DNA from: an uncultured Thermodesulfobacteriota bacterium
GTDB lineage: Bacteria; Desulfobacterota; GWC2-55-46; JADFVP01
Direction: 5' to 3'
Assembly (NCBI GenBank): GCA_964567185.1
Contig: CAZMKZ010000001.1
Span: 13,507 to 77,506 of the forward strand
Length of the DNA: 64,000 nucleotides
The notes under the pieces are model-generated. The model saw only the letters and a list, made by a program, of their open reading frames with translations, was not told the origin of the DNA and made no database searches. Shown here piece after piece: positions 2,655 through 44,394 of the stretch. A program made the position numbers and the translations under genes. Every line of letters begins with the position of its first letter. Within the stretch, counting starts at the first letter, position 1.

Positions 2655-4220
2655 ATGACCAAGGGAAGTCATTCAAGAAAAATAGCCGCAGGGGCCTCCA
2701 TTGTGGGCGGTGCAACGGTCCTCAGCAGGATATTAGGCTACATACGTGATATGGCCATAGCCTATTATTTCGGCGCAGGCGCCCTCTCGGACGCCTTTTT
2801 TGTGGCCTTCAGGATATCAAACCTCTTGCGCCGGCTTGTGGGCGAGGGCGCGCTGACCTCGTCGTTTATACCAATATTCCTTGACGAACGGACACGGCGG
2901 GAAGACGAAGACCTCAAGGGGCTTGTGAGCGGCGTCTTTACGCTCTTTACCATCATACTTATTGTGGTCACCTTTCTCGGCATATTTTTTTCCGAGGACC
3001 TCGTGGCCCTCATGTCGCCGGGTTTCCTCTCCGACCCGGAAAAATTCGCACTTACCGTAAATCTTACAAGGCTCATGTTCCCCTATATGATATTCGTGGG
3101 GCTAATGGCCATAGGCATGGGGGTATTGAACTCCCTCAAGCACTTTACGGCGCCTGCGCTTGCCCCCGTATTTTTTAATATAGCCATCATCTCTTCCATA
3201 CTCCTCATTTCCCCTTTTCTTCAGCAGTCCGTCTACGCCCTTGCCATTGGTGTGCTCATAGGCGGCACGCTTCAGTTCGCCATTATGCTGCCATGGCTCA
3301 AGCAATACGGCTTCATGCCCTATATATCCTTCAGGTTCAGGGATAGCGCCATACTTAAGATATTCAAGCTCATGGGACCGGCGGCCTTCGGTATCGGCAT
3401 CTATCAGTTGAATATCTTTATTGTCCTCTGGTTTGCCTCGTCTCTTTCCGAGGGTAGCGTGAGTTATCTGTATTACGCTGGCAGGCTCATGGAACTGCCC
3501 CTTGGCATATTCGGCGTGGCCATCTCAACGGCGGCCCTGCCAAGCCTATCGGAGTGCGCGGCAAAGGGGCAGTGGAGCGGTTTTATGGAGTCCCTTGGTT
3601 ATGCCCTGCGTCTGGTGCTCTTTCTGACCATACCTGCCGCGGTTGGGCTTGTCATCTTGAGCCTCCCTGTCATAGAGACCCTCTTCAGCCACGGAGAGTT
3701 CAGGGAAGGGGCCGCCCACGCAACGTCCATGGCCCTCTATTATTACGCGCCGGGCCTTGTTCCCGTGGCCCTGTACCGCATACTCACATCTGTCTTCTAC
3801 TCATTGAAAGACACCGTTACTCCCGTGGCCGTGGCCTTTGTCACACTCATAATCAACGTTTTTTTCTGCTTTATCCTTGTGGGGCCCATGCAGCACGCCG
3901 GGCTTGCCCTTGCCACCACCATATCGGCCCTTTTCAATATGGCGGCCCTATTGTTCCTCCTCAGGAAAAAGATAGGAGCATTTGACTGGGCAGGTCTTTT
4001 AATATCCGCTCTTAAGAATCTGACTGCCGCCCTTGTAATGGGCGGGGCCGTATATCTTATCTTCTACGTGCCGGGTTTCAACGAGGCCGGACGGCTCCTG
4101 AAGATGGTCACCCTCGGTGGGACCATCCTTGCCGGCGTCTTTGTGTATATAGGCTCCTCACAGCTCCTCAAGGTGCCTGAAGTGGCGTTTTTAAAGGGGT
4201 TTTTCTTAAAAGGGCGTTAA
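2655..4220 (+). CDS. murJ: lipid II flippase MurJ (MviN)
   Basis: 521 aa and polytopic. The N-terminus IVGGATVLSRILGYIRDMAIAYYFGAG is the MurJ signature. Confidence 0.9.
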   Translation: MTKGSHSRKIAAGASIVGGATVLSRILGYIRDMAIAYYFGAGALSDAFFVAFRISNLLRRLVGEGALTSSFIPIFLDERTRREDEDLKGLVSGVFTLFTIILIVVTFLGIFFSEDLVALMSPGFLSDPEKFALTVNLTRLMFPYMIFVGLMAIGMGVLNSLKHFTAPALAPVFFNIAIISSILLISPFLQQSVYALAIGVLIGGTLQFAIMLPWLKQYGFMPYISFRFRDSAILKIFKLMGPAAFGIGIYQLNIFIVLWFASSLSEGSVSYLYYAGRLMELPLGIFGVAISTAALPSLSECAAKGQWSGFMESLGYALRLVLFLTIPAAVGLVILSLPVIETLFSHGEFREGAAHATSMALYYYAPGLVPVALYRILTSVFYSLKDTVTPVAVAFVTLIINVFFCFILVGPMQHAGLALATTISALFNMAALLFLLRKKIGAFDWAGLLISALKNLTAALVMGGAVYLIFYVPGFNEAGRLLKMVTLGGTILAGVFVYIGSSQLLKVPEVAFLKGFFLKGR

Positions 4221-4422
4221 AGGCCCCTCTGCTCATGGTTGCCCGATAAAAAATAGACCGCCTAATCCTAACCTCTTGTTTTATAAGCGAAAAATAGTGA
4301 TGAAAAAATAGGCAATCTGCCATTGCCCCCATAGTTGATTGACTATAAGAGCAAAATTCAGGGGGTTTTCAACAAGTTATTCACAGGTGTTGGGGATACA
4401 TCCTGAAGGTCTTGTTTTTGCG

Positions 4423-5220
4423 CTATTTTTTCTTTTCTTCCACCTTGGCCTCTTCCCATAGCTGGTTCAGCCTATCCATCCCCATCCCGGCGATGCCGTG
4501 GTCCTGGGCGGCCTTTTTTTCCACGTAGTGGAAGCGGTCAACGAACTTTACGATGGTCTTTCTAAGGGCCTCCTCCGGGCTTACCTCAAGGAATCTCCCG
4601 GCGTTTACCAGGGTAAAGAGGAGGTCTCCGAGCTCTTCTTCCATGGCACGGCTGTCTTTATTCCTTATGGCCTCCTCGAACTCGCCAAGCTCTTCAGTGA
4701 CCTTTTCCATAACCCCTTTAATATCAGGCCACTCAAAGCCGGCCTTTGCCGCCTTCTTGCTTATCTTGTGTGCCCTCATGAGCGAGGGCATGGCAGAGGG
4801 CACCTCAAAAAGGGAGCCCCGGGGTTTTTGTTTCTTCTCTCCCTCTTTTATCTCTTCCCAGCGCGCAAGGACCTCGGCGGGGGTCTCGGCTGTGGCGTCA
4901 CCAAAGACATGGGGGTGGCGGCGTATCATCTTTTCCACGGACAGGTCCATGACCTCTTCTATATTCCCTTTGCCCTCTTCTTCGAGGATACGGCAGGAGA
5001 AGATTACCTGAAACAAGAGGTCGCCGAGCTCTTCTTTTATATGCGGGACATCGCCGGAGTCAATGGCCGAGACCACCTCGTAGGCCTCTTCGATGATAAA
5101 GGGGGTGAGGCTTGTGAGGTTCTGCGCCCTGTCCCAGGGACAGCCGCCCTCGCCACGCAGCCTCTCCATGAGGGCCTTTAGCCTTGTTAACCCCGTGCCT
5201 TCCACTGATTTTGTCTCCAT
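4423..5220 (-). CDS. mazG: nucleoside triphosphate pyrophosphohydrolase MazG
   Basis: Tandem MazG domains carrying EEAYEV..ELGDLLFQV and EELGEFEEA..ELGDLLFTLV motifs. Confidence 0.85.
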   Translation of the reverse strand: METKSVEGTGLTRLKALMERLRGEGGCPWDRAQNLTSLTPFIIEEAYEVVSAIDSGDVPHIKEELGDLLFQVIFSCRILEEEGKGNIEEVMDLSVEKMIRRHPHVFGDATAETPAEVLARWEEIKEGEKKQKPRGSLFEVPSAMPSLMRAHKISKKAAKAGFEWPDIKGVMEKVTEELGEFEEAIRNKDSRAMEEELGDLLFTLVNAGRFLEVSPEEALRKTIVKFVDRFHYVEKKAAQDHGIAGMGMDRLNQLWEEAKVEEKKK

Positions 5221-5804
5221 TAGCAGTCCTTTTTCCTTGTTGAACGCATGCTGAGTTCCTGCCTTGTGTTAATGTTGGCTACGGAGGCCTCTATATCCAC
5301 GCCTTTGAAGTCACTCTCTGTGAGTCTCTTTACCTTTACCCTGTCAAAGAGGGTCATTATTCGCAGGTCCTTTTTTTTAATCATCTCTTCTATCGGGTCA
5401 AGGCATCTTTTGTCGTACATGGCGTGCATGGGGTGAAGCCTCCCGCCTATAAAGGGCACAACCACAAGGGCGCCTTCTGCTGGGGTTGAGATAAGCCTTT
5501 GTACGGCCCCTGCGTTTATGTCGGGCATATCGCAGGCCGTTACAAAGGCCTGCTCTGAGCTTGAGTTCAGGAGCGCAGTATAGATGCCTCCGAGGCTTCC
5601 CGCGCCCTTGTAAAAATCGGGTATGGCCTCTGCGCCGAGCCCCTTGAAGAGATTGACCTCGTCGGCTATGATGAGCTTCCGGTCGAATACCTCGCTCAAG
5701 ACACCGAGGACCCGCTCGATAATGGCAGTGCCGTCCACCTCTATGAAGGCCTTGTTGGCGCCCATGCGCCTGCTCTGCCCCCCGGCAAGGACGGCCCCTG
5801 TCAT
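5220..5804 (-). CDS. mobA: molybdenum cofactor guanylyltransferase MobA
   Basis: GAVLAGGQSRRMGANKAF at the N-terminus and an MobA-like fold of ~190 aa. Adjacent to mobB. Confidence 0.8.
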   Translation of the reverse strand: MTGAVLAGGQSRRMGANKAFIEVDGTAIIERVLGVLSEVFDRKLIIADEVNLFKGLGAEAIPDFYKGAGSLGGIYTALLNSSSEQAFVTACDMPDINAGAVQRLISTPAEGALVVVPFIGGRLHPMHAMYDKRCLDPIEEMIKKKDLRIMTLFDRVKVKRLTESDFKGVDIEASVANINTRQELSMRSTRKKDC

Positions 5805-6304
5805 CTTTTGTCTACCTTTATAATCACATTCTCGATAATATCGGCAACACCCTTGAAGTCGTTAATATCAAGGAGGGGCCTGTCAGTATCCACGGGCCCG
5901 TCGCTTACAACGGCAATGAGGGAGGTATCGTCAATACAGGCGCGGGCCTCAGAGACCGACTTTCTGAAGACCTCAATCTTGGGCAGGTTTCCCGTCTTGT
6001 AGCCCTCTGTTATGACAACGTCAAGGTCGTTCATGAACGTGCCGATAGCCTCGGTAAGGGGCATCTCAACATCGGTGCTCTTGATAAAGGCCATTTTTTC
6101 CTTTGAGGTAATGAGAACGCTCACGGCCCCGGCCTGCTTGTGACGCCACGAGTCTTTTCCCTCGCGGTCTATCTCGAACCTGTGGGCATCGTGTTTTATG
6201 GTGCCCACCCTGAACCCCCTTTCCGTTAGTTCGGCCACTACCTTTACGATAAGCGTAGTCTTGCCGGAGCCGGAAAACCCTATTATGGATACCGCTGGAA
6301 TCAT
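5801..6304 (-). CDS. mobB: molybdopterin-guanine dinucleotide biosynthesis adaptor MobB
   Basis: P-loop IGFSGSGKTTL ... GTIKHDAHRFEIDREGKDSW is the MobB signature. Confidence 0.85.
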   Translation of the reverse strand: MIPAVSIIGFSGSGKTTLIVKVVAELTERGFRVGTIKHDAHRFEIDREGKDSWRHKQAGAVSVLITSKEKMAFIKSTDVEMPLTEAIGTFMNDLDVVITEGYKTGNLPKIEVFRKSVSEARACIDDTSLIAVVSDGPVDTDRPLLDINDFKGVADIIENVIIKVDKR

Positions 6305-6547
6305 ATTTTTACTCTACCTCCACGGGTTAAAAGCCGATTAAAATTGATTAAGATAAGAAAAGGATATCAGAGGGTTACGGCGCCTGTCAAATCCAAAAAT
6401 CCCTGTGCCGCAGGCCGCCCTCCCATTAAATGATATGCCTTTACATATGAAAAGCATTTGATTATGGTCTATGATAAACTTACTTGGGGTCTGCTGTGGG
6501 CGAGGGGAAAAAGGGGAGCAGGGGATTATTAAAAAAATGGGGGTCTT

Positions 6548-7981
6548 ATGAAAAAGATACTCAGTAAGCCGAGAGACCTGCCCTCCGTAGAGGCATTGGC
6601 AAACGAAGAGTGCCTTGCAGGGCTCAGAGCTGATTACGGGGCGATCCTCGTGACGGACTCGGCGCGCGCTGTCATTGATGAGGCAAGAGATATACTGTCT
6701 TTTGGGCAAAAGGGCGTAAAGGGCGGTGAGGGGGGCGAATCCATCAGCGTTGATGTGCTTTTGAGCAGAGTGGTTGAGAGGGTGGAGGCCGTCATGGGCG
6801 GCGGGCTACGCAAAGTGATAAACGCCACGGGCACTGTCCTGCATACCAACCTCGGCAGAAGCGTGCTCTGCGACGAGGCCCTTCGCAAGGTTGCCCTTGC
6901 CTGCGCCTCGTACACGGACCTTGAGTTTGATATCGGCAGGGGAGCGCGGGGTGAACGCGATTCATTTTCCGTATCCCTTATAAAACAGCTTACTGGATGC
7001 GCTGAGGCCTCTATTGTTAACAACAACGCCGCGGCCCTGCTCATTACCCTTAATACGCTGGCCGAGGGCAGGGAGGTCATCATATCAAGGGGCGAGCTTA
7101 TAGAGATAGGCGGCTCATTCCGTCTGCCCGATATTATCACTAAGAGCGGCTGTATCCTGCGGGAAGTCGGCACTACGAACAGGACGCACGCCGCAGACTA
7201 CGTAAAGGCCATAGGGGAGAAGACGGCCCTTATATTGAAGGTCCATACGAGTAACTACACCATTGAGGGCTTTACGAGCGAGGTGGGCCTCAAGGAGCTT
7301 GTCTCTATTGGGGCGAAATACAACGTGCCCGTAGTGGAAGACCTTGGAAGCGGCGCTCTGCTTGACCTTACCGCCTATGGCCTGCCCCATGAGCCCCTTG
7401 TCTCGGAGAGCATCCGCGCAGGGGCGGGGTGCGTCACCTTCAGCGGAGACAAGCTCCTTGGCGGCCCGCAGGCAGGGCTTATTGCCGGAAATATGGACCT
7501 TGTGGAGAGGATAAGAAAAAATCCCCTCAAGAGGTCGCTTCGGGCGGGGAAACTAACGCTTGCCGCCCTTGAGGAGACCTTGAAATTGTATTTAACGCCT
7601 TCGAGGCTTCAAGAGCGCCTTCCGGCCTTGAGGCTCATGACCCGCCCTGTTGACGAAATCGAGGCCATGGCAGAAAAGGCCGCTGATATTATCAATAAGG
7701 ATAAGGGCGCGGGCCTCAATGCAACGGTAGAGGAGGCCAGCAGTGTAATAGGCGGCGGTTCACTGCCTGGCCGAACGCTTCCTACGATGGTAGTCTCCAT
7801 AAGGGGCGGCATGGGCCCCGCGGCTCTTTACAGGGCCTTTCTTGAGGCCCGCCCACCACTGCTCCCTGTGCTTGGAAGGATAAGCAAAGACAGCTTTATC
7901 CTCGACGCCCGCACCGTACTTGATGAAGGGGAATTTTTATCGGCCATCAGCACGATTGTCACCCGTATTAAAGGGGGGTAG
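6548..7981 (+). CDS. selA: L-seryl-tRNA(Sec) selenium transferase SelA
   Basis: 477 aa with an N-terminal SelA domain and the PLP-fold region VINATGTVLHTNLGRS and KVHTSNY, consistent with SelA. Confidence 0.85.
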   Translation: MKKILSKPRDLPSVEALANEECLAGLRADYGAILVTDSARAVIDEARDILSFGQKGVKGGEGGESISVDVLLSRVVERVEAVMGGGLRKVINATGTVLHTNLGRSVLCDEALRKVALACASYTDLEFDIGRGARGERDSFSVSLIKQLTGCAEASIVNNNAAALLITLNTLAEGREVIISRGELIEIGGSFRLPDIITKSGCILREVGTTNRTHAADYVKAIGEKTALILKVHTSNYTIEGFTSEVGLKELVSIGAKYNVPVVEDLGSGALLDLTAYGLPHEPLVSESIRAGAGCVTFSGDKLLGGPQAGLIAGNMDLVERIRKNPLKRSLRAGKLTLAALEETLKLYLTPSRLQERLPALRLMTRPVDEIEAMAEKAADIINKDKGAGLNATVEEASSVIGGGSLPGRTLPTMVVSIRGGMGPAALYRAFLEARPPLLPVLGRISKDSFILDARTVLDEGEFLSAISTIVTRIKGG

Positions 7982-11412: not shown

Positions 11413-11624
11413 CTTTAATATAATGCCTTAAGGCGGCCATGTCAAAGGAGTTATAAGAGAAAGACAAGTAAAATCAAGGCAAAAAAGGTTTGATATCCTT
11501 GGAAAAAAAGATTTAAGAGATGAGAGGGCCGCTGTAGTCGCCTCTTTGGCGTGCCATCCTTCTACAAAGCGTAAAATAGTAGCGGATTTTTTGTCACGCA
11601 TGTGAAGGGGGCTGGGGAGGGGAC

Positions 11625-12002
11625 TTACTTTAAATCATTGGGGCTCATAACCCAGACCCTTATTGGGAGGTTGAACTCTTTAATGGTTAGGCGCAGCCTT
11701 TTGAGAAACCGCTCTTCAGGGGTTTTTTCCACTATGATTAGTATGCCAGGTTGCCTTCCTGTCTTTCCACTGTAAAATAGGGCCTGCCCGATGGCCTCGG
11801 CCCATTTATCCGCAAAATCCACCTCCACGGCATAGGTATCCGTAAGGCAATCGACGCGTGTACGGTCTGAGAGCACAACTTCGACCTGCCCGCCGATATG
11901 GCCGCACCAGGACTCCTGATAAACTTTTTCAAGGTGTAAGGTCTTGCTGAAGGCATTTACAGGGGTAAGGAAGATAAAAAAGATTAGCAAAGACTTTGAC
12001 AA
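11625..12002 (-). CDS. small secreted hypothetical protein
   Basis: Signal peptide MSKSLLIFFIFLTPVNAFS. No known motif. Confidence 0.35.
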   Translation of the reverse strand: MSKSLLIFFIFLTPVNAFSKTLHLEKVYQESWCGHIGGQVEVVLSDRTRVDCLTDTYAVEVDFADKWAEAIGQALFYSGKTGRQPGILIIVEKTPEERFLKRLRLTIKEFNLPIRVWVMSPNDLK

Positions 12003-12221
12003 AGACCCCCCGCTTTGTTCTCGGCGTTTCAGCGATATCGGGGAGTCTTATTCTCTGGTGTGCTGGAAACCGTTCTCTACCCAAAATGGGCGGACAACCA
12101 TAGCCCTGTTGAGCTGAAGATTATAATACCACTATATTAACAAAATGTGAACCGTTTTAAATAAAAAAAGTATTTTTTTTGAGGTCCAAGGGCCTTAAAA
12201 GGAGCGGCCTATTCCCCGGCC

Positions 12222-12896
12222 TCATTTTTCCAGTGTTCTTACCAGCTTTTTCGCTATTGAGGGGACGTTTTTCACCGTGCCGTCGAAGATTTCATAAACG
12301 CCTATGTCCTCCTCATCGTAGAACCTTGAGTTGGACTTCTGGTCCGTTACAATGGCCGCCCCTGCCAGCGAGACCCCGGCAAAGAGGCCCCTTGACCTTG
12401 AGTAGGAGTATATCTCCGCCTTCATGGTAACATCCGTTGCCGCCTCGCTGTGGCGTCCCACGGGACCTGCGGCCACGGTAGCGTCGGCGCCGAGGGTGAA
12501 CTTCGCCCGCCTCAGCCCGTCTACGCTCTTTTTTGTCCTGAAGACCAGAATTACATCCGATGATTGCGCTCCAACCTGAAAGCCAAGGCTCGCGCCGGCA
12601 ATGGTGATAAAGGAGGGGTAACTCCAACCTGTTTTGTTGCGAACAACGACAACGCCGCGCCCGAATTTTCCGCCTACCACATAGCCCACCTTTATCACCG
12701 AAGGGATGATTGCTATGGCATGCGCCTCGCGCAGGAGGTCCTCAGGGATGCTCTTTTCCGGTATGGACATGATGTCTTCCATGACCTCTATGGCATCTTC
12801 TACCTTTCTCGTCTCTTTTCTTCCCGCCGAAGCCGGGTATGAGGTCAGTAATATCAGAAAGGCCGCTAAAAGTGCCGTCATCATGTGTTTTTTCAT
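12222..12896 (-). CDS. SYLF (Ysc84/DUF500) lipid-binding domain protein, exported
   Basis: Signal peptide followed by ...IIPSVIKVGYVVGGKFGRGVVVVR...GASLGFQVGAQSSDVILVF...FTLGADATVAAGPVGR, the repeated SYLF pattern. Confidence 0.65.
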   Translation of the reverse strand: MKKHMMTALLAAFLILLTSYPASAGRKETRKVEDAIEVMEDIMSIPEKSIPEDLLREAHAIAIIPSVIKVGYVVGGKFGRGVVVVRNKTGWSYPSFITIAGASLGFQVGAQSSDVILVFRTKKSVDGLRRAKFTLGADATVAAGPVGRHSEAATDVTMKAEIYSYSRSRGLFAGVSLAGAAIVTDQKSNSRFYDEEDIGVYEIFDGTVKNVPSIAKKLVRTLEK

Positions 12897-13043
12897 GGAT
12901 TTACCTCCTATACTGAAAATTTACACTTTACACTGCCTTCTGTCAACATTTATGAGGAGTTAAATGGGGCTTTTGAGTAATTTCATCAGGCCGTTATTGT
13001 GTAGACTTTTTAATGTCCGGGAGATAATATCAAGGCATCGGGT

Positions 13044-13283
13044 ATGGTGTGTGGGGCCGAAGAAGACCATTATCGGATAATAATGCAGAATTCATTTAAA
13101 AAGCGTTCTGAAATTCCGAAAATTATATTATCTCTTGTGGTCTTGAGTGCCACTCTTACGGATATTTTTTCTGATGCGTTTTTTGGAAAATTTCAGGAAC
13201 TTCATCCGAAGTCAAAGGTAGCGGTTGTTTTCTTCGCGATCTTTGCTTTCTTTAGTTTGTGCGTGGACTTTGGCAATGTCTAA
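13044..13283 (+). CDS. possible small membrane protein in an AT-rich tract (weak)
   Basis: Two hydrophobic segments. AT-rich, no clear RBS. Could be spurious. Confidence 0.2.
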   Translation: MVCGAEEDHYRIIMQNSFKKRSEIPKIILSLVVLSATLTDIFSDAFFGKFQELHPKSKVAVVFFAIFAFFSLCVDFGNV

Positions 13284-13423
13284 GGAATAAAGGTATATAG
13301 GTATCAGGGCTATGACGAGGGATAGTGATAAAAAATAAAACCCTTTTATGTTTTTATTAGAGTAGTTTTTCAATTCGCCTCTATTGTGGAAAGCCTTTGC
13401 TCTTAAAAAAGGAGAGTAAGCCC

Positions 13424-14647
13424 ATGGCCAGATTTAAAAAAGATGAGTGGGACAGGGTTATGAAGTTTTTGGACGAGCACCATGGCCGGTTTGGATTGCC
13501 TGAGCGGCGGGCGGACTCTGTTGTCTTCGCGTCATTCAATATCCGAAAAATCGGAAAGGTCAAAAACCGGTCAAAACAGTCGTGGGAGTTTCTGAAAATG
13601 TTCTGTGAGCGTTGTGACCTTGTGGCGGTGCAGGAGGTTCAGGATAATCTCGAAGGCCTTAACTATCTCAAGGGGCTTTTGGGCGATAGCTACGGTATGG
13701 TTTGCTCGGATATCACGGGAGGTGTTCCCGGCGGAGTCGGCATGACAGAACGCCTTGCCTTTCTCTTTCATTGGCCCACGGTCCAGCGAACTGAAGTGGC
13801 ATCTGATATTTCTTTTGACCGAACTTCTGTTTTTGATACGCTATTTAAGAATCGAGCCGATTTTTCCAGGGCCTTCAGAAAATACGCCACGGGCCTCACC
13901 GCATGGGAGAAGAAGGTAGAGGTGTGGAAGGAAGAGGGAAAACCGGGCAAAAAGCCCAAGAAGCCTCCTTTCGTACTTCCCCGTTTTGTGACCTTCGTGC
14001 GCACTCCGCTCTGTGTTTCATTTCGAGTTCCGGGCTTCAACGGGGCCGTACCATATGAGTTTTTGGCCGTAAGCGCCCATCTGCTTTTTGGAGACAAAAG
14101 ACTGCAAAAGCAGGAGCGAAAGATGGAGTTCTATGCGCTGATAAAGTGGCTCATCTCCAGAGCGGCGCATGCGGACAGACTGTATCACAAGAACATCATC
14201 CTTCTCGGAGATATGAACCTTGATTTTGAGGAAGTTGATCCGAGACGGGCCGAGATAGAAGCTGAGATAAAGGGTTTCAATAAAAAATTTCTTAAATATC
14301 ATAAAGCCGCAAAGGTAAATTTCCCCTTTCTCGATGTTCATCCGGGCAATGATACCGTTTTTCGCACAAACGCCCGCAAGAACCAGACCTATGACCAGAT
14401 AGCCCTCTTCAGTCACGATAAGCGCCTGCCTGACGATAAGAAGAACGATACGGCCGGACAGACGCCGGGAGAGTTCGACTTCGGGGTTTTCAACTTTGTT
14501 GACCTCTTTGCCGAGGCGCTCCACGGGAAATCGCTAAAAGATCTATCGAGTAAAGAGAGAAAAGCGCTCTATGCCAGGTTTGAATACGATGTGAGCGACC
14601 ACATGCCCATATGGGTCCGTCTGCCCATGCCTTATGTGGGGCAGTAG
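13424..14647 (+). CDS. endonuclease/exonuclease/phosphatase (EEP) family protein (start at ATG 13424 with RBS GGAGAG; the track start 13397 is probably upstream of the real start)
   Basis: EEP catalytic motifs in order: VVFASFNIRKIG, LVAVQEVQD, LLGDMNLDF, SDHMPIWVRL. No signal peptide. Confidence 0.75.
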   Translation: MARFKKDEWDRVMKFLDEHHGRFGLPERRADSVVFASFNIRKIGKVKNRSKQSWEFLKMFCERCDLVAVQEVQDNLEGLNYLKGLLGDSYGMVCSDITGGVPGGVGMTERLAFLFHWPTVQRTEVASDISFDRTSVFDTLFKNRADFSRAFRKYATGLTAWEKKVEVWKEEGKPGKKPKKPPFVLPRFVTFVRTPLCVSFRVPGFNGAVPYEFLAVSAHLLFGDKRLQKQERKMEFYALIKWLISRAAHADRLYHKNIILLGDMNLDFEEVDPRRAEIEAEIKGFNKKFLKYHKAAKVNFPFLDVHPGNDTVFRTNARKNQTYDQIALFSHDKRLPDDKKNDTAGQTPGEFDFGVFNFVDLFAEALHGKSLKDLSSKERKALYARFEYDVSDHMPIWVRLPMPYVGQ

Positions 14648-14832
14648 AAGAGGGGGCAGGGGCTTGCAGATTGGTGAAGCGGAGCGCACAGCCCGACAAA
14701 TCATTGTTACGATAAGGGGAAGAAATTTAATTTCTCACCTTCTTGTCGCTCCTCTCACGTCCGCCCCTCTACCAGTATCTTCCATGGCATTGCCTCCTTC
14801 GGGAAGATAGGTCAAAAAAACCTAAAAACCCC

Positions 14833-14861
14833 TTGACACCCCGGCATAAATGAAATAATAT
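14833..14861 (+). promoter_or_regulatory. sigma70-type promoter for the rplU-rpmA-obg operon (TTGACA-17 nt-TAATAT)
   Basis: Consensus -35 TTGACA at 14833-14838 and -10 TAATAT at 14856-14861, 30 nt upstream of rplU. Confidence 0.5.
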
Positions 14862-14892
14862 TTAATATTCCAATAATAACGGAGGCATGACC

Positions 14893-15204
14893 ATGAAAGC
14901 GGTAGTCAAGACAGGCGGCAAACAGTATACCATTACAGAAGGCGATACCCTGAGGGTTGAAAAACTTGAAGGTCAGGTTGGCGCTACTATCAACCTTGAA
15001 GAAGTCCTCGCCGTGGGGGAGGGGCAGGACATAAAACTCGGCACCCCTACGGTAGAAGGGGCCAGCGTCAAGGCCGAGATATTGGCCCATGGAAGGGGCA
15101 AAAAAGTCATCGTCTTCAAGAAGAAGAGAAGAAAAGGCTATAAGAAAAAGCAGGGCCACAGGCAGGATTATACGGGCATAAAGATAGCGGAAATTAAGTA
15201 CTAA
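14893..15204 (+). CDS. rplU: 50S ribosomal protein L21 (second ATG 14893 preferred because of RBS spacing)
   Basis: [25 protein letters not shown]. Confidence 0.95.
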
Positions 15205-37970: not shown

Positions 37971-37995
37971 CATAGCACAATTGAATAAATGGATA

Positions 37996-38150
37996 TCTTA
38001 TCCAGAGTGGTGGAGGGACTGGCCCGATGAAACCACAGCAACCGGTGCATCACTGCATGTCAGGTGCTAAATCCAGCAGGGTTTGCAAAAACCCTGAAAG
38101 ATAAGAAGAACTAAGAGACCCTCTTCTTATCCCAAGAAGAGTTTTTTTTT
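37996..38150 (+). ncRNA. SAM-I (S-box) riboswitch with intrinsic terminator expression platform
   Basis: TCTTATCCAGAGTGGTGGAGGGACTGGCCCGATGAAACCACAGCAACC...CTGAAAGATAAGAAG. The GGTGGAGGGACTGGCCCGATGAAACC core matches the SAM-I kink-turn/P2-P3 consensus, and P1 is TCTTATC/GATAAGA. A terminator CTCTTCTT-ATCCC-AAGAAGAG plus T9 lies at 38121-38150, and its 5' arm can alternatively pair with the P1 3' strand. Confidence 0.85.
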
Positions 38151-38218: not shown

Positions 38219-39472
38219 ATGAAGTACATGAAAGGATTAAAGTGCAGGGAGTGCGGGAAGCGCTATCCCCTGGAACCGATCCATGTCTGCGAGTTCTGTT
38301 TCGGGCCCCTTGAGGTGGACTATGATTACGAGAAGATAGGCAAGTCCATTACCAGAGACATCATTACCACCAGAGCCCCTAATATGTGGAGATACAGGGA
38401 GTTGCTTCCCATAGACGCCGAGCCCACGGTGGGCAACAACTCCGGATTTACGCCCCTTGTAAGGGCCTATAACCTGGGCGAGGCCCTGGGCGTTAAAGAA
38501 CTGTACATAAAGAACGACGCCGTTAATTTCCCGACCCTCTCTTTCAAGGACAGGGTGGTCTCCGTGGCCATCTCAAGGGCCAGAGAGATGGGCTTTGACG
38601 TCATCGCCTGCGCCTCAACGGGCAACCTGGCCAACTCCGTTGCCGCCAACTCCGCGGCCTGCGGCCTTGATAGCTATGTCTTCATACCCTATGACCTTGA
38701 GCAGACCAAGATAACGGGAACCCTTATCTACGGCACTAACCTCGTGGGCATAAAGGGGACCTATGACGAGGTGAACAGGCTCTGCAGCGAGATAGGCGGC
38801 AAATACGGATGGGCCTTTGTAAACATCAACATCAGACCCTTTTATGCCGAGGGCTCCAAGACATTCGGCTACGAGATAGCCGAGCAGTTGGGCTGGAAGC
38901 TCCCGCAGCACGTTATTGTGCCCATGGCCGGGGGCTCTCTCATCACAAAGATATGGAAGGCCTTCAAGGAGTTCAAGGCCCTTGGTTTTGTCGATTCTCC
39001 GCCGGCGAAGATATACGGCGCGCAGGCAACGGGATGCGCCCCCATAGTAACGGCTGTTAAGGAAAAGAGCGAGCTCATCCGTCCGGTCATGCCCGATACT
39101 ATCGCCAAATCCCTTGCCATCGGCAACCCGGCCGACGGCTTTTACTCCGCAAGGGCCATCAGGGAGAGCAATGGCTGGGCCGAGGACGTTTCAGATGAAG
39201 AGATAATCGAGGCCATGAAGCTCCTTGCCGAGACAGAGGGCATTTTTGCCGAGACAGCCGGCGGCGTTACCGTGGGCGTGACTAAAAAACTCATCGAGCA
39301 GGGCAGGATACCCCGTGACGAGTCCATAGTCATCTCCATTACGGGCAACGGCCTTAAGACTCAGGAGTGCCTGGCGGGAAAAATCGCCGAGCCCCCTGTA
39401 ATAGAGGCTAAACTTGCCGAGTTCGACGCCCTGCTTGAGGGCGGCTCCGTGCGGAAGACGGCGGTAAAATAA
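38219..39472 (+). CDS. threonine synthase-like PLP enzyme (fold type II) with an N-terminal zinc ribbon; candidate O-phosphohomoserine-dependent homocysteine synthase (MetM-like, MA1715-like)
   Basis: CRECGKRYPLEPIHVCEFCFGPLEV zinc ribbon. PLP lysine motif FPTLSFKDRVVSV. ThrC-like length of 417 aa. First gene after a SAM riboswitch. Confidence 0.8.
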   Translation: MKYMKGLKCRECGKRYPLEPIHVCEFCFGPLEVDYDYEKIGKSITRDIITTRAPNMWRYRELLPIDAEPTVGNNSGFTPLVRAYNLGEALGVKELYIKNDAVNFPTLSFKDRVVSVAISRAREMGFDVIACASTGNLANSVAANSAACGLDSYVFIPYDLEQTKITGTLIYGTNLVGIKGTYDEVNRLCSEIGGKYGWAFVNINIRPFYAEGSKTFGYEIAEQLGWKLPQHVIVPMAGGSLITKIWKAFKEFKALGFVDSPPAKIYGAQATGCAPIVTAVKEKSELIRPVMPDTIAKSLAIGNPADGFYSARAIRESNGWAEDVSDEEIIEAMKLLAETEGIFAETAGGVTVGVTKKLIEQGRIPRDESIVISITGNGLKTQECLAGKIAEPPVIEAKLAEFDALLEGGSVRKTAVK

Positions 39473-39677
39473 GGGACGGGGCGTGATCGGGGGAGGCCCG
39501 TAGAGTATTGGCGCGGGGCAGGATTAACCGGCAGGGCCTGTGCAATATAACAAGGGCTGCCCGGTAGAGAGGCGGGTTCGGCTTGTAATAGTGACCCTCT
39601 TTCTGTTATCATTAGGGTTTAAGAAATATAAAAATTTTCCCTCTAAGAGGGGCGGTTTTCTTAAGGAGGTTTTTTTT

Positions 39678-40673
39678 ATGACGGACCATTTCATAGAGGA
39701 TAAGAGCCATAAGGTAGACCTTGACCTTGAGAACCTCAGCGGTAAGGTTAACTTCGGCGACCTCAAATCCGGGGGGTTCATAAAGCAGCGCCAGAAGGAC
39801 CTCTTTACCGTAAGGCTCCGCTGTCCCGGCGGCAGGATGACTACGGACAAGCTCGTGGAGATATCGAGGCTCGCAAAAAAATACAGCAAAGAGGGTGTGG
39901 TGCACTTCAGCTACCGCCAATCCCTTGAGATACTATATGTGGATTATAAGGACTTTCACGCCCTTGTGGGCGAGCTTGAGAAGATAGGTCAGAAAGTGGC
40001 CTCATGCGGGCCCCGTGTAAGGGTGCCCACTGCCTGCGGCGGATGCGAGTATAACCCCAACGGGCTTATAGACGCGCAGAAGATGGCCCGCATGGTGGAC
40101 GGTAAGTTCTTCGGAACAAATACGCCGCATAAGTTCAAGACCTCTTTTTCGGGCTGTCCCATAGATTGCTCAAGGACCGTTGAGATGGACCTCGGTTTTC
40201 AGGGCGTAGTGGACCCCGAGTGGGAGCAGGACCTCTGCACGGGATGCACCATCTGCTCCGAGGCCTGTAAAGAGGGGGCCATTGAGGCCCACCCCGATAC
40301 AGGAGAACCAATCTTCGACGTTAGTAAATGCCTTTACTGCGCCGACTGCATACGGGCCTGTCCCACCGAGGCGTGGAAACCCGGCAAGCACGGCTTTCTT
40401 GTGCGCATTGGCGGCAAACATGGCCGTCATCCCCTTGAGGGCGTTGAAATCTGCCGTTTCCTACCGGAGGAAAAGGTAAGCGACGCCATAGAGATGACCG
40501 TCAGGTGGTATAAAGAAAACGGCAAGAGTTTCGAGAGGATAGGGCACACCCTGCAGAGGGTGGGCATGGACGGTTATCTTGACCACATGGCCCCGCTCTT
40601 CGGTGATTATGCCGTTAGACCAAAGCATCCGCCCACGGACCGTCCGCTGATCAATAAGCCCGAAGGGGCCTGA
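39678..40673 (+). CDS. small dissimilatory-type-like sulfite reductase (Dsr-like, alSiR-type) with an inserted 2x[4Fe-4S] ferredoxin domain (start ATG 39678 with RBS AAGGAGG)
   Basis: NIR_SIR-type Cys cluster SCGPRVRVPTACGGC ... GCPIDCSRT. Ferredoxin motifs CTGCTICSEAC and CLYCADCIRACP. Confidence 0.7.
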   Translation: MTDHFIEDKSHKVDLDLENLSGKVNFGDLKSGGFIKQRQKDLFTVRLRCPGGRMTTDKLVEISRLAKKYSKEGVVHFSYRQSLEILYVDYKDFHALVGELEKIGQKVASCGPRVRVPTACGGCEYNPNGLIDAQKMARMVDGKFFGTNTPHKFKTSFSGCPIDCSRTVEMDLGFQGVVDPEWEQDLCTGCTICSEACKEGAIEAHPDTGEPIFDVSKCLYCADCIRACPTEAWKPGKHGFLVRIGGKHGRHPLEGVEICRFLPEEKVSDAIEMTVRWYKENGKSFERIGHTLQRVGMDGYLDHMAPLFGDYAVRPKHPPTDRPLINKPEGA

Positions 40674-40788
40674 TTAGCCGCGCTTCATTGGGTCGGGTAT
40701 GGATAATGGGGGGTAATCGGCGCAGTGGGTTTTCAGCTTTCGCCGGGAACCCGAAACATAACAGATCAGGACAAACGGTAAGGTTGAT

Positions 40789-41028
40789 ATGAGTGAGATA
40801 AAGGCAAAGGACAGCATCGATTTAAGGGGCGTCATGTGTCCCACAAACTTTGTAAAGACCAAGCTCAAGCTCGAGGCCATGAACCCCGGCGAGATACTCG
40901 AAGTGGTGCTTGACAGCGGCGAGCCTATCGCCAACGTGCCGAAAAGCGTCAAGGAAGAGGGACACAAGATAGTCAAGGTAAGCAAAGACGACGGCTCATT
41001 CAGGATTTTGATAGAGGTCTCTGAATAG
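40789..41028 (+). CDS. TusA/SirA-family sulfurtransferase-like protein
   Basis: 79 aa. ...IDLRGVMCPTNFVKTKLKLEAM... is a Cys-Pro TusA-like motif in a two-layer alpha/beta fold. Confidence 0.65.
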   Translation: MSEIKAKDSIDLRGVMCPTNFVKTKLKLEAMNPGEILEVVLDSGEPIANVPKSVKEEGHKIVKVSKDDGSFRILIEVSE

Positions 41029-41063
41029 CCCCTAATAAAGTTTTCAAGTACAAGGAGGAGAGT

Positions 41064-41348
41064 ATGTCAGTAAAGGTGAGGATACCCACACCCCTGAGGA
41101 AGATTACAAAGGACAACGACGAGGTCACTGCCGACGGGGCCACGGTCTCCGAGGTAATAGACGACCTGGAGAAAAACTATCCGGGAATAAAGGAGAGGAT
41201 ATGCGAGGCCGACGGGAACCTCCGCCGCTTTGTAAACCTCTATCTCAATGACGAGGACATTCGCTTCAAGGATAACCTCGCTACTGCACTGAAAGACAAC
41301 GATGAACTCTCCATCATTCCGGCCATCGCCGGAGGAGGTGGCCTTTGA
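41064..41348 (+). CDS. ThiS/MoaD-family sulfur-carrier protein (CysO/HcyS/MetO-like) whose C-terminus ...AIAGGGG-L* needs proteolytic exposure of Gly-Gly
   Basis: 94 aa beta-grasp pattern with a glycine-rich C-terminus followed by a single Leu before the stop at 41346-41348. Confidence 0.7.
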   Translation: MSVKVRIPTPLRKITKDNDEVTADGATVSEVIDDLEKNYPGIKERICEADGNLRRFVNLYLNDEDIRFKDNLATALKDNDELSIIPAIAGGGGL

Positions 41349-41581
41349 AAAAAAAGGTCTATCTAACCTATCCTCCGGAGAGGGTGAGAGAGCCTCTTCT
41401 CTGTGAGTGCGTGCGCAGGTTCAATGTCGTAACCAACATAAGGCAGGCCTCTGTTACGGACAAGATAGGCATCGTGGCCCTTGAGCTCGAAGGCGAGCCC
41501 ACGGAGATAGAAAAGGCCATGGACTTTTTTACTGAAAACGGCGTGAAGGTCGAGCCTATTGAGATGAATATTATCGAGTAG
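41345..41581 (+). CDS. stand-alone NIL-domain protein (the MetN C-terminal-type domain). TTG start overlaps the carrier-gene stop by 4 nt (TTGA); RBS GGAGGAGGTG
   Basis: KVYLTYPPERVREPLLCECVRRFNVVTNIRQASVTDKIGIVALELEGEPTEIEKAMDFFTENGVKVEPIE aligns by eye to the MetN NIL domain (LTFTGE...PLISEL.RRFGVDVNIL.GNIE...G.L.VELEGD...ALAYL.E.GV.VEVL). Confidence 0.7.
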   Translation: MKKKVYLTYPPERVREPLLCECVRRFNVVTNIRQASVTDKIGIVALELEGEPTEIEKAMDFFTENGVKVEPIEMNIIE

Positions 41582-41679
41582 CGCCCTCTCACCTTTCCCC
41601 GTCCTTGTCCAAAGGACGGGGAGCCTTGCAAATTCAACTCCCATTGGATTCTTTTCCTTGAAATCACTGCATATTATTC

Positions 41680-41706
41680 TTGACAAACCCGCTAAGGTAT
41701 TATAAT
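41680..41706 (+). promoter_or_regulatory. possible internal promoter (TTGACA-15 nt-TATAAT) upstream of the CysM-like gene, preceded by a 10-bp hairpin CCCCGTCCTT-GTCCA-AAGGACGGGG at 41594-41619
   Basis: Hexamers and hairpin seen directly. The spacer is short at 15 nt. Confidence 0.3.
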
Positions 41707-41810
41707 TTAAAAACTTGATTGTTTTAGTAAGGTAATAAAAAATGCCTTGTAAAAAGCGAGGTTTTAAGGCGCCTCTCCATAATGCTTAACATAATTCCAA
41801 GAGGCCTTGA

Positions 41811-42767
41811 ATGAGCAGCCATACCTTGAAGAGTTTTGACGCAGGGAACGAGTTTGCCATCCCGAAGGCGAGGTCCTCGGCCCTTGACCTTGTGGGCAAT
41901 ACGCCCCTTGTGAGGATAAACAGCATTACAGCGGGTCTTCCAGCCGGCGTAGAGGTATACGCCAAGCTCGAGTCCGCCAACCCCGGGGGCTCTGTAAAGG
42001 ACAGGCCGGCGCTCCGTATGATAGAAGACGCCGAGAAGAGCGGAAGGCTTACCAGGGATAAGATAATACTGGACTCCACATCGGGAAACACGGGCATTGC
42101 CTATGCGTGGATAGGCGCCGTAAAGGGCCATCGCGTAGAGCTGGTGGTTCCGGAAAACGTCAGCGCCGAGAGAAAAAAGATACTCGACGCCTTTGGGGCC
42201 AAGGTCATATTTTCAAGCCCCTTCGAGGGCTCCGACGGTGCGATACGTCTTGCCTGGAAGCTCTACGTGGATAACCCCGAAAAGTACTGCAAGCTCGATC
42301 AGTACAATAACCCCTCCAACCCCCTTGCCCATTACCATGGCACGGGAGTTGAGATAATCGAGCAGACAGGGGGCAGGATCACGCACTTTGTCACCACCAT
42401 AGGCACGGGCGGCACCATAATGGGGACCATGCGCAGGCTCAAGGAGTTTAACAGCAATATCGAAGTAACCGCCGTTGAGCCCGACAACCCCATGCATGGG
42501 CTTGAGGGCCTGAAACACATGGCCTCGTCCATAGTGCCGGGCATCTATCACGAGGACTCGCTGGACAGGAAGATACCGGCCTCCACCGAAGAATCTTACG
42601 AGATGGCCAAGAGGCTAGCCCGTGAAGAGGGCCTTCTTGTGGGGCAGTCATCGGGGGCGGCCATGCTCGGAGCGCTCAAGGTGGCCATGGAGCTTAAAGA
42701 GGGTCTTGTTGTGACAATATTCCCCGACGGCGGAGATAAGTACCTCTCCACAAGCCTCTGGGATTAA
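41811..42767 (+). CDS. cysteine synthase-like PLP enzyme (CysM/CysK family, fold type II)
   Basis: GNTPLVRINSI...VYAKLESANPGGSVKDRPALRMIEDAEKSGRL...DSTSGNTGIAYAWIGAVKGH is the classic CysK/CysM N-terminal half, including the PLP lysine. Confidence 0.85.
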   Translation: MSSHTLKSFDAGNEFAIPKARSSALDLVGNTPLVRINSITAGLPAGVEVYAKLESANPGGSVKDRPALRMIEDAEKSGRLTRDKIILDSTSGNTGIAYAWIGAVKGHRVELVVPENVSAERKKILDAFGAKVIFSSPFEGSDGAIRLAWKLYVDNPEKYCKLDQYNNPSNPLAHYHGTGVEIIEQTGGRITHFVTTIGTGGTIMGTMRRLKEFNSNIEVTAVEPDNPMHGLEGLKHMASSIVPGIYHEDSLDRKIPASTEESYEMAKRLAREEGLLVGQSSGAAMLGALKVAMELKEGLVVTIFPDGGDKYLSTSLWD

Positions 42768-43010
42768 GGGCTACGGGGAGCCCGGGCAGATTATTATTTT
42801 AAATGGCTGACAACAGCCGGTATTGATTTTTTTGGCCTGTCTTTTTTTGAAAAAAGAAGGCCACGCGGTTTTTTTTGATGGTTTCGGCTTCACGGGTTAT
42901 GCTTTGCTTTGTCCATCGTGCAAGTGTTTCCATGCGGCTACAGGCCGCTTATAAATGTGATTAAAGGGGCGTATTGCCCATAACGTGTAAATAAAGATAA
43001 GGGGCAAGTA

Positions 43011-43463
43011 ATGGGTCTACTCTCAAAGTTCAAGAAAAAGAATAAGCTGAAGGTGCCTAAGGACGTTTACGATATCATCATTGAACATGCCAGAGAGGAG
43101 TATCCCCATGAGTGTTGCGGAGTTCTCATAGGTAACGCCATGATGGGCAGAAAGATATTCTACGCCGACAAATGCACGAACCTGAACCGCGAGAGCGCAC
43201 ATAACAGGTATCTCATGGACCCCAAGGAGATAAATCTTGCCGATAAGGGTGCGCGCTCGCAGAGCCTTGAGCTTATGGGCTTTTATCACTCTCATCCGGA
43301 CCATCCGGACAGGCCCTCGGAGTACGACAGGGAGATGGCCCAGCCCGGATACTCATATATAATAGTCTCCGTAAAGGGCGGTACCGAGTTCTCCTTGAAG
43401 TCATGGACCTTTAACGAGGACGATGAACCCTTCAAGGAAGAGCCCGTGGAGATAGGCAAATAA
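43011..43463 (+). CDS. JAMM/MPN+ family metalloprotease (Mec+/HcyD/QbsD-like)
   Basis: E...ECCG, HSHPDHPDRPSEYD (JAMM motif HxHx7Sx2D). 150 aa. Confidence 0.85.
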   Translation: MGLLSKFKKKNKLKVPKDVYDIIIEHAREEYPHECCGVLIGNAMMGRKIFYADKCTNLNRESAHNRYLMDPKEINLADKGARSQSLELMGFYHSHPDHPDRPSEYDREMAQPGYSYIIVSVKGGTEFSLKSWTFNEDDEPFKEEPVEIGK

Positions 43464-43584
43464 AAACCCGGAGGGGTATGTTTGCAGTATACTTTCGGCG
43501 TTAGCGTCCCTGTAATGGGGTGAGTTTTCTTTTTTTGCCGCGATACTACATTTTGTTTTTGCATAGAGGGGGTTAGAGGTCAAG

Positions 43585-44394
43585 ATGGATTTTACCGATG
43601 AACAGATAGAGCGTTACTCAAGGCATATCATACTTCCGGAGGTAGGCGGAAAGGGGCAGGCAAAGCTCCTTGAGTCCAGGGTCTTTGTCCTCGGCGCGGG
43701 GGGGCTCGGTTCTCCGGCCCTGCTTTACCTTGCCGCGGCGGGCGTGGGCACCATAGGGGTTGCAGACGGCGACGTTGTGGATGTAAGCAACCTTCAGCGC
43801 CAGATAATACACGACAACAATACCGTTGGTATGCCAAAGGTGGATAGCGCGCGAAAGTCCATTGAGGCCCTTAATCCCGATGTTGAGGTAAAGACCTTTA
43901 ACGGCAGACTTGATACGGAGAACATCAGAGAGGTCCTTCGGGATTACGATGTGGTCCTTGACGGCTCTGATAATTTTCCAACGCGCTACCTCATGAACGA
44001 CGCCTCTTTTTTCGAGGGCAAGACCCTTGTCTCGGGGTCCATGTTCAGGTTTGACGGGCAGGTCTCTGTCTTCAAGCCGCAGGAGGGCTTTCCCTGTTAC
44101 AGATGCCTCTACCCGGAGCCCCCGCCAAAGGGCATGGTTCCGTCCTGTCAGGAGGCCGGTGTGCTTGGGGCCCTTGCGGGAGTTATAGGGGTACTGCAGG
44201 CCGTGGAGGCCATAAAAGAGATACTCTCCATCGGCAAATCCCTTGCCGGCGAGCTCTTGATATTCGACGCCCTTGCCATGAGTTTCCGCAAGGTCAAGGT
44301 GCGCACAGACCCTGATTGCGCGCTCTGCGGCGGGAATGCTACCATAAAGGAGCTCTCGCTCTATGAGCAGGCCCCATGCGAGCTGCGTACCTGA
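43585..44394 (+). CDS. ThiF/MoeB/HcyF-type E1-like adenylyltransferase (no rhodanese domain)
   Basis: RYSRHIILPEVGGKGQAKLLESRVFVLGAGGLGSPALLYLAAAGVG nucleotide-binding motif. C-terminal Zn motif CYRC...CALCGG. Confidence 0.85.
   Translation: MDFTDEQIERYSRHIILPEVGGKGQAKLLESRVFVLGAGGLGSPALLYLAAAGVGTIGVADGDVVDVSNLQRQIIHDNNTVGMPKVDSARKSIEALNPDVEVKTFNGRLDTENIREVLRDYDVVLDGSDNFPTRYLMNDASFFEGKTLVSGSMFRFDGQVSVFKPQEGFPCYRCLYPEPPPKGMVPSCQEAGVLGALAGVIGVLQAVEAIKEILSIGKSLAGELLIFDALAMSFRKVKVRTDPDCALCGGNATIKELSLYEQAPCELRT

Follow-up and report, generated by a model that had tools for sequence, protein, structure and literature searches.

What does the solitary endonuclease/exonuclease/phosphatase (EEP) gene beside the most AT-rich 500 bp of a bacterial contig encode, and did gene and AT-rich DNA arrive together? 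The locus lies in a 64,000-nucleotide stretch (hereafter, the window) of contig CAZMKZ010000001.1 from an uncultured Thermodesulfobacteriota bacterium. The interval in question, 12897-14647, is located between a Ysc84/SYLF lipoprotein gene (12222-12896, minus strand; Pfam PF04366, E 2e-39) and the rplU-rpmA-obg-proB-proA series (14887 onward, plus strand). The initial annotation treated the whole interval as one AT-rich islet with a lone, possibly transferred EEP enzyme, whose role could be defence, DNA repair or lipid dephosphorylation. We favour, with moderate confidence, a different reading: the product of the gene is a functional, metal-dependent phosphodiesterase of the DNase I branch that stays in the cytoplasm and may serve in DNA turnover, repair or defence, the gene was gained horizontally long ago as a solo gene and has been kept vertically since, and the AT-rich tract is a separate matter.

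The EEP gene (13424-14647, plus strand) is a real open reading frame (ORF) that starts at the ATG at 13424, from which residues are numbered here, and ends with its stop codon at 14647, giving a product of 407 rather than 408 residues. An AGGAG box resembling a Shine-Dalgarno element, read from the sequence at 13410-13414 (plus strand), is placed 9 nt 5′ of the start. The catalytic motifs are complete, as first reported, and comprise FNIR (N39), QEV (E71), GDMN (D263 and N265) and SDHMPIW (D392 and H393), with E109, H219 and D324 completing the catalytic set. In an alignment of 42 homologues, residues N39, R41, E71, D74, E109, R110, H219, D263, N265, Y323, D324, D392 and H393 are invariant. 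The Lys-rich insertion is likewise present: the Lys/Pro-rich segment KEEGKPGKKPKKPP (residues 169-182; 13928-13969, plus strand) sits inside a family-specific insertion that is predicted to consist of helices at about residues 133-170 and a loop running to the strand at 196-202. The segment varies in length within the family, and its end, KPP-FVLP-xF-xxF-xRTP, is invariant in the same alignment and leads into an 'RTP' motif (R193/P195). The protein has no hydrophobic segment, the maximum 19-residue Kyte-Doolittle mean being 1.16 at an internal β-strand, and neither a signal peptide nor a membrane helix is evident from the sequence. Because it lacks a hydrophobic N-terminus or membrane segment, the protein is most likely cytoplasmic, in agreement with the first description.

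Sequence, profile, fold and residue comparisons all point to the DNase I branch, suggesting that the EEP protein is a metal-dependent nucleic-acid phosphodiesterase with DNA as its most likely substrate and with a modified recognition surface. Specifically, DNase gamma and DNase I are its sole matches in a phmmer search against all PDB sequences, and alignment of the family profile with bovine DNase I by hhalign gives a probability of 96% with 33% identity over the N7/R9/E39/E78 region. The AlphaFold2 (AF2) model (pLDDT 90.8, pTM 0.90) displays the four-layer α/β sandwich common to DNase I, ExoIII, TDP2 and CCR4. Every one of the ten leading PDB matches in Foldseek is a DNase I or DNase1L3 structure (E ~1e-13; TM on the target 0.72-0.78). 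DNase1L3 and DNase I lead the other folds by at least 3.7 Z units, with EEPD1, TDP2, PDE12 and CNOT6L as the next best, and a fold search of BFVD returned generic giant-virus EEP proteins only. Fold and motifs thus favour a DNase I-type nuclease over the lipid and inositol phosphatases that the initial annotation had also entertained. In NCBIfam the protein matches only MnuA and Xth models, far below threshold. In particular, the Xth/ExoIII models TIGR00195 and TIGR00633 score 15.4 bits (cut-off 182.55) and 14.8 bits (cut-off 99.05), so the protein is not the Xth/ExoIII paralogue that would have made it a housekeeping enzyme. Its motifs follow DNase I rather than exonuclease III, and the family occurs in ~0.1% of species, whereas Xth occurs in nearly all. 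A scan against PHROGs gave no match for the EEP protein. None of Pfam, NCBIfam, PADLOC and PHROGs has a model dedicated to the family, which leaves its members with a generic annotation only; it is an uncharacterised subfamily of the already known DNase I-like EEP nucleases.

The EEP protein shares with eukaryotic DNase I and DNase1L3 (DNase gamma) the catalytic constellation and the motifs FNIRxFG, QEVxD, ERY/L-F, GDFN-D, YDR/Q-I and SDHYP. R9, R41, Y76, R111 and Y211 of DNase I contact DNA. The equivalent of DNase I R9 is EEP R41, which is conserved in both the hhalign comparison and the 42-homologue alignment. The hhalign alignment extends to DNase I R9, R41 and Y76 only, with the R111/Y211 region outside it; from a motif match between the DNase I sequence and the family alignment, we take R193/P195 to correspond to R111/P113, and Y323 to correspond to Y211. 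EEP residues R41, R193 and Y323 would therefore be the retained part of the DNA-contact set. The EEP protein differs from its eukaryotic relatives in having ~150 extra residues, an overall identity of 16-22%, and Q and M in place of DNase I R41 and Y76. Furthermore, DNase I is a secreted enzyme, whereas the EEP protein is prokaryotic, predicted to be cytoplasmic and without a signal peptide. The CdtB and MnuA family proteins are secreted, membrane-anchored or toxin-delivered, whereas the EEP protein has neither an export signal nor genes for partner subunits.

By analogy with DNase I, a water molecule activated by histidine, with assistance from Mg2+/Ca2+, would attack the DNA phosphodiester to leave a 5′-phosphate and a 3′-OH. 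In the AF2 model, the ~150 residues predicted to lie beyond the DNase I core form an N-terminal helix (residues 7-24) followed by an invariant FGLPERR, the helical insertion with its Lys/Pro strap, and helices at 274-289 and 339-390. The N-terminal helix, the insertion with its strap and the C-terminal helices probably enlarge or gate the face that binds nucleic acid, and gating would account for the cell's tolerance of a cytoplasmic DNase that has no inhibitor gene.

The age of the gene at this site can be read from the closest related genome, the Thermodesulfobacteriota metagenome-assembled genome (MAG) GCA_046753945.1 (L001 in the set of EEP loci, L006 in the tree). Its EEP orthologue, with 74% amino-acid identity, is located directly upstream of an rplU-rpmA-obg-proB-proA-PatA_N-GAF-ThiS series, as in the window, and the flanking proteins of the two genomes are 69-91% identical. 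The ratio of nonsynonymous to synonymous substitution rates (dN/dS) of the EEP gene is 0.113, compared with 0.10-0.15 for L21, Obg, ProB, ProA, PatA_N and the GAF protein, and its synonymous rate (dS) exceeds 1. The shared synteny, together with core-like dN/dS at dS above 1, indicates that the gene has been vertically inherited at this site since the lineages split. The acquisition is old, and a recent islet, as implied by the initial annotation, is not supported; synteny with a related species is kept, although the typical codon usage that might have accompanied it is not found. Nucleotide homology between the two genomes begins at ~13407, in the ribosome-binding site region and including the AGGAG box. 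Upstream of its EEP gene, the related genome has cytochrome c and multicopper-oxidase genes, separated from the EEP gene by just 127 bp that include a terminator-like hairpin, and it has neither the AT-rich tract nor the small ORF that the tract carries in the window. The tract is therefore outside the conserved unit. On the other side of the gene, 14813-14999, around the promoter-like site of rplU, is 86% identical in the two genomes, but no similarity is detectable between them in 14657-14812, which runs from the EEP stop codon to the rplU promoter region.

The family is small and tight. A word-indexed search returned 936 homologues, the best 120 of which are ~400 aa long and 50-100% identical, and of 1.84 billion cluster representatives, searched exhaustively with a profile, only 157 reached E <= 1e-30, many being fragments. 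Relatives were found in 182 of 185,579 species genomes (~0.1%; one-genome-per-species GTDB contigs), a scan limited by its search patterns. The carriers span more than ten phyla at 44-60% identity to the window protein and include Alpha- and Gammaproteobacteria, Acidimicrobiia, Bacteroidota, Nitrospinota, Acidobacteriota, Planctomycetota, Chloroflexota, Cyanobacteria, Zixibacteria, Firestonebacteria and one Thaumarchaeota MAG. Within Thermodesulfobacteriota, one other species representative has the gene. In a neighbour-joining tree, the window protein and that of GCA_046753945.1 are nested inside a proteobacterial clade, and Acidobacteriota, Nitrospinota and Chloroflexota are each split into several places. 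The family is absent from 50,697 phage records and 2.9 million IMG/VR viral contigs, and 72,556 plasmids contain no member, only 5 distant matches at 25% identity. Of 53 genes, the EEP gene has the synonymous codon usage that fits the remainder of the window least well (z −2.8), and its GC content at third codon positions (57.2%) is the second lowest. The patchy distribution, the conflict between tree and taxonomy and the poor codon fit together support a horizontal origin; the proposal of horizontal acquisition thus stands for the gene, without the recent arrival. The accessory gene, rarely transferred but between widely different bacteria, would have reached an ancestor of the Thermodesulfobacteriota lineage by horizontal transfer and would then have been inherited vertically upstream of rplU-rpmA-obg-proB-proA.

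The gene is also solitary, as first proposed. All-against-all clustering of all ORFs of 80 EEP loci, with EEP ORFs called by tblastn anchoring, revealed no neighbour common across lineages; the sole neighbour to recur is the hybrid histidine kinase of the paralogue modules in Dehalococcoidia. In Pfam and PADLOC scans, the 140 proteins that flank the gene in 52 loci outside Dehalococcoidia belong mostly to housekeeping families: FtsB/DivIC (6 loci), SSB (4), Kelch (3) and TonB receptors (3), then enolase, a tRNA synthetase, RecD2 and ScpA. The PADLOC matches among them are generic (RecD, Lon-like BrxL and IscS-like DndA, at most two members each), and the most frequent flanking families in these 52 loci include no integrase or transposase. 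The arrangement is stable within lineages, with EEP-ftsB in several Alphaproteobacteria, Kelch-EEP in Maricaulis and scpA-EEP in two Gammaproteobacteria. Its position before rplU in the window has parallels across lineages, in which the EEP gene repeatedly adjoins housekeeping genes of high conservation. In alphaproteobacterial loci (L010, L003, L021 and others), it lies among gyrA, ssb and uvrA or has a 4-nt overlap with the start of ftsB.

Rare fusions join the EEP domain to a ThsB-like TIR domain (P0169; L090, 265-2133), to a two-HKD PLD module matching DrmC models (P0171; L094, 1504-4512) and to ankyrin repeats (P0149). Downstream of the TIR-EEP gene come a 128-aa ORF and an HTH_3/DUF6922 gene of the HTH/XRE type. 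Dehalococcoidia MAGs contain 2-4 copies per genome of a ~4.1-kb two-gene module with 88-98% nucleotide identity and sharp borders (about 3110-7210 in each of L053, L054, L058, L064, L066 and L074; also in L062). In this module, a gene for an 808-aa hybrid sensor kinase/response regulator (GAF-PAS-HisKA-HATPase-REC-Trans_reg_C) ends 5 bp before the EEP gene.

The AT-rich tract (12897-13423, no strand) extends between the divergent Ysc84/SYLF gene on one side and the EEP gene on the other. It is indeed far more AT-rich than its surroundings: 12897-13420 has 37.0% GC, and 12886-13385 is the lowest-GC 500-bp stretch of the 64 kb (36.4%, z −4.1; runner-up 42.8%). The surroundings themselves are at 53.0% GC over the whole window (coding mean 53.8%) rather than at the ~57% first given. 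Of the 28 intergenic regions that reach 100 bp (mean GC 46.6%, sd 5.4%), only one, another divergent-promoter spacer at 34.6%, is lower in GC than the tract. The junction of the Ysc84 gene, the small ORF and the EEP gene is covered by three independent assemblies (one JGI and two Logan, 99.5-99.75% identity), so it is not an assembly artefact or a chimera. An Rfam scan of the whole window, with permissive settings on the tract, revealed no relevant family in the tract, which gave only a chance lncRNA match (E 0.67); the Rfam matches elsewhere in the window are a SAM riboswitch and a tRNA-Gly. A repeat search around the EEP gene found no notable flanking direct or inverted repeats, and the nearby window ORFs together with the repeat and RNA scans place no direct repeats, tRNA, integrase or transposase at the borders of the interval.

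The tract carries a mini-ORF that the initial annotation called a dubious 79-aa membrane ORF. An ORF of 79 codons does exist, read from an upstream ATG (13044-13283). The likely product is 66 aa long, beginning MQNSFKK, because homology starts at the internal ATG at 13083 (13083-13283, plus strand), and it has two predicted hydrophobic helices. The ORF is not simply dubious, because its homologues stand in the immunity position of Rhs cassettes. Among 5.8 billion proteins, searches returned no more than three true homologues, besides one identical copy that comes from the same population, and a pattern scan of metagenomes gave no further relatives. All three homologues (L086, L095 and L096) lie directly 3′ of Rhs/YD-shell C-terminal toxin cassettes. 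In these Rhs/YD-shell fragments the core ends in a DPWGL motif, after which comes one particular C-terminal domain (QGPDDLARAFLGTNYNDALGY...), which begins QGPDDLARAFLG, and L086 contains an array of three tandem toxin/small-gene cassettes. The family members map to 13083-13283 of the window, 4597-4815 and 2978-3181 of L086, 1788-2060 of L095 and 612-884 of L096; the L095 homologue is from the same metagenome sample as the source contig of the window. Nucleotide homology is confined to 13078-13285, at 78-80% nucleotide and 69% amino-acid identity, with a dN/dS of 0.24 over 58 codons. The homologues are themselves AT-rich (32-37% GC versus 50-57% for the Rhs core), which partly accounts for the composition of the tract. 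PADLOC and PHROGs scans of the mini-ORF product gave no match.

The window copy differs from its homologues in a 1-nt deletion near the 3′ end, which alters the last 7 residues and removes ~6 more, and in a weaker ribosome-binding site without the GAGG box of the L086 homologue. The 64-kb window contains no Rhs gene. The mini-gene thus appears, from its sequence, to be an orphan Rhs-immunity-like copy that may be decaying, and its family, judged by position, would serve as immunity genes. The resemblance to known orphan Rhs immunity genes extends to the placement of the homologues after a variable C-terminal toxin domain, the cassette arrays, a composition richer in AT than the core, and the solitary state of the window copy; the differences are that the family has just four known members and that the window copy has a frameshifted, possibly decaying 3′ end. 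A pairing of the EEP gene and the mini-ORF as toxin and immunity gene was considered and rejected, because the two are not co-inherited in GCA_046753945.1 or at any other locus and because the partners of the mini-ORF elsewhere are Rhs C-terminal domains. In the best-supported account, the tract is a younger, lineage-specific junction at a synteny breakpoint, made of divergent promoter DNA and a scrap of an Rhs toxin-immunity cassette. In the same account, a chance rearrangement made neighbours of the tract and the EEP gene, which are not one unit. An AT-rich 'islet' can thus be a composite, in which an old, domesticated transferred gene stands beside a much younger toxin-immunity scrap, a lesson for annotation.

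Several points weigh against our reading of the EEP gene as an old horizontal gain encoding a DNase I-branch nuclease. With Pfam PF03372 (Exo_endo_phos) the protein scores 23.2 bits (E 6.8e-5), below the gathering cut-off of 24.5 bits; some homologues carry a precomputed match to this model. Because DNase I residues R41 and Y76 are not conserved, the enzyme could instead act on RNA, on a DNA end that is structured or damaged, or on a nucleotide derivative. Literature searches turned up neither a paper on the family nor biochemical evidence for any member. The synteny evidence comes from a single related genome, and the neighbour-joining tree carries no support values. The atypical codon usage of the EEP gene could mean low expression rather than foreign origin, and it persists in the related genome despite dS above 1. 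Gating, finally, is proposed from the secondary-structure layout only.

The rival explanations concern what the enzyme does and how the locus was formed. A stand-alone anti-phage or anti-plasmid nuclease, auto-inhibited, released on infection to degrade invader or host DNA (abortive infection) and spread horizontally, is in our estimate unlikely. It would make sense of the patchy, transfer-like distribution and the atypical codon usage, of the fusions to a ThsB-like TIR domain and a DrmC-like PLD nuclease, of the HTH/XRE-type gene following the TIR-EEP gene, of the multi-copy paralogues in Dehalococcoidia, and of the orphan toxin-immunity-like gene that adjoins the EEP gene in the window. However, the EEP protein matches no PADLOC-DB 2.0.0 family at E <= 0.1, the recurrent families among the 140 flanking proteins are housekeeping ones, the PADLOC matches among these 140 are generic homologues, and neither a defence-island nor a mobile-element context is seen, so the defence option of the initial annotation finds little support. 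The family is also missing from phage and viral-contig collections, with only 25%-identity relatives on plasmids, and it is very highly conserved across phyla (44-60%). The stable retention of the locus (dN/dS 0.11 at dS above 1) is, moreover, unlike that of fast-turnover defence genes. In our preferred reading, the long vertical retention of the gene among housekeeping neighbours tips the balance somewhat towards a niche-specific part in DNA processing and away from fast-evolving defence. The same retention, with its strong purifying selection, would also fit a lesion- or structure-specific DNA-repair or end-processing enzyme, acting like EEPD1, TDP2 or the AP endonucleases and not as a bulk DNase, a proposal that we find doubtful and rank behind the defence nuclease. 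The loss of the minor-groove residues R41 and Y76 of DNase I is consistent with changed DNA recognition, the fold resembles EEPD1 and TDP2, and gyrA, ssb, uvrA, recD2 or scpA adjoin the gene in several lineages. These neighbours are themselves ubiquitous core genes, however, and are not conserved beside the EEP gene across lineages. A general repair function would call for a wider occurrence than the ~0.1% of species genomes seen here, the scores with the Xth and exoDNase III models are far under the cut-offs, and the sequence motifs are those of DNase I, not of APE1 or TDP2.

A lipid or small-molecule phosphodiesterase or phosphatase (of the sphingomyelinase/phospholipase C, inositol phosphatase or nocturnin/ANGEL/PDE12 type) instead of a nuclease is very unlikely. 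The lead of DNase1L3 and DNase I by at least 3.7 Z units, their standing as sole PDB sequence matches, and the motifs FNIRxxG, QEVxD, ERxxF, GDxNxD, YDQI and SDHxP with the R9, R111 and Y211 equivalents all match DNase I, the Lys-rich strap is basic, and the protein has no membrane-binding hydrophobic loop or helix. What can be said for such an activity is that one family member is fused to a two-HKD PLD module, which we take to resemble the clsB-ybhP pair of Escherichia coli, a PLD-family cardiolipin synthase with an EEP protein. The least probable account is that the whole of 12897-14647 is one recent islet, with tract, mini-ORF and EEP gene forming a single mobile or toxin-immunity unit, and we give it next to no weight. 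Tract and gene are both compositionally atypical, to which extent the original islet survives: no other 500 bp of the window is as AT-rich as the tract, the EEP gene, a 125-aa ORF (described below) and the Ysc84 gene have the three worst codon fits, and the mini-ORF belongs to a toxin-immunity context elsewhere. The related genome contradicts it, with the EEP gene at the same site but neither the tract nor the mini-ORF, and with homology that starts only at ~13407. In addition, no other locus pairs the EEP family with such an ORF, the borders have no direct repeats, integrase, transposase or tRNA, and the mini-ORF is partnered elsewhere by Rhs C-terminal domains and not by EEP proteins.

Taken as it stands, our preferred reading of an old, solitary DNase I-branch nuclease kept by vertical inheritance is a sound but modest result. 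DNase I-type enzymes are familiar as nucleases that are secreted, namely animal DNase I and DNase1L3 and bacterial CdtB and MnuA. A conserved intracellular DNase I-like family with ~150 residues of its own, no inhibitor gene and a spread driven by transfer raises the questions of how it is tolerated and what it cuts. A bolder proposal, which we consider just as doubtful as the repair enzyme, is that the family is an unrecognised, self-contained cytoplasmic immune nuclease of the DNase I type, whose N-terminal helix and family-specific helical insertions would keep it closed until a cue from infection or DNA damage, and which would have spread across more than ten phyla and archaea and would occasionally be wired to TIR, PLD or two-component modules. 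If so, it would be a prokaryotic counterpart or relative of animal DNase I/DNase1L3 that acts inside the cell. A gated immune or repair nuclease would represent a new effector class with a possible evolutionary link to animal DNase I.

The remaining features of the locus concern its transcription and its outer reach. A candidate sigma-70-like promoter identified by consensus scan (12918-12946, minus strand; TTGACA-17-TAAATT, 10 of 12 matches only) faces the Ysc84/SYLF gene from within the tract. Downstream of the EEP gene, the promoter noted earlier before rplU (14887-15204) is recovered by the same type of scan as a near-consensus candidate sigma-70-like element, TTGACA-17-TAATAT (14833-14861, plus strand). 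The stretch from the EEP stop codon to rplU has no predicted terminator-like site, so transcription of the EEP gene may continue into rplU. A 125-aa ORF (11625-12002, minus strand) with a signal-peptide-like N-terminus, located between ftsH and the Ysc84/SYLF gene, has no match in Pfam, NCBIfam, PADLOC or PHROGs. Among the 53 window genes, the worst codon fits belong, in this order, to the EEP gene, the 125-aa ORF and the Ysc84 gene. Because the latter two rank second and third, the compositionally odd stretch may reach from about 11600 to 14650.

Far from this locus, the SAM riboswitch (94 bits, 37995-38107) precedes a threonine-synthase-like gene with a zinc-ribbon-like N-terminus. Downstream of it are ThiS/MoaD-like, cysteine-synthase-like, JAMM-like and ThiF-like genes, as judged by their N-terminal sequences and our own reading. 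Together, the genes at 38219-44394 look like a sulfur-carrier-based methionine or homocysteine pathway.

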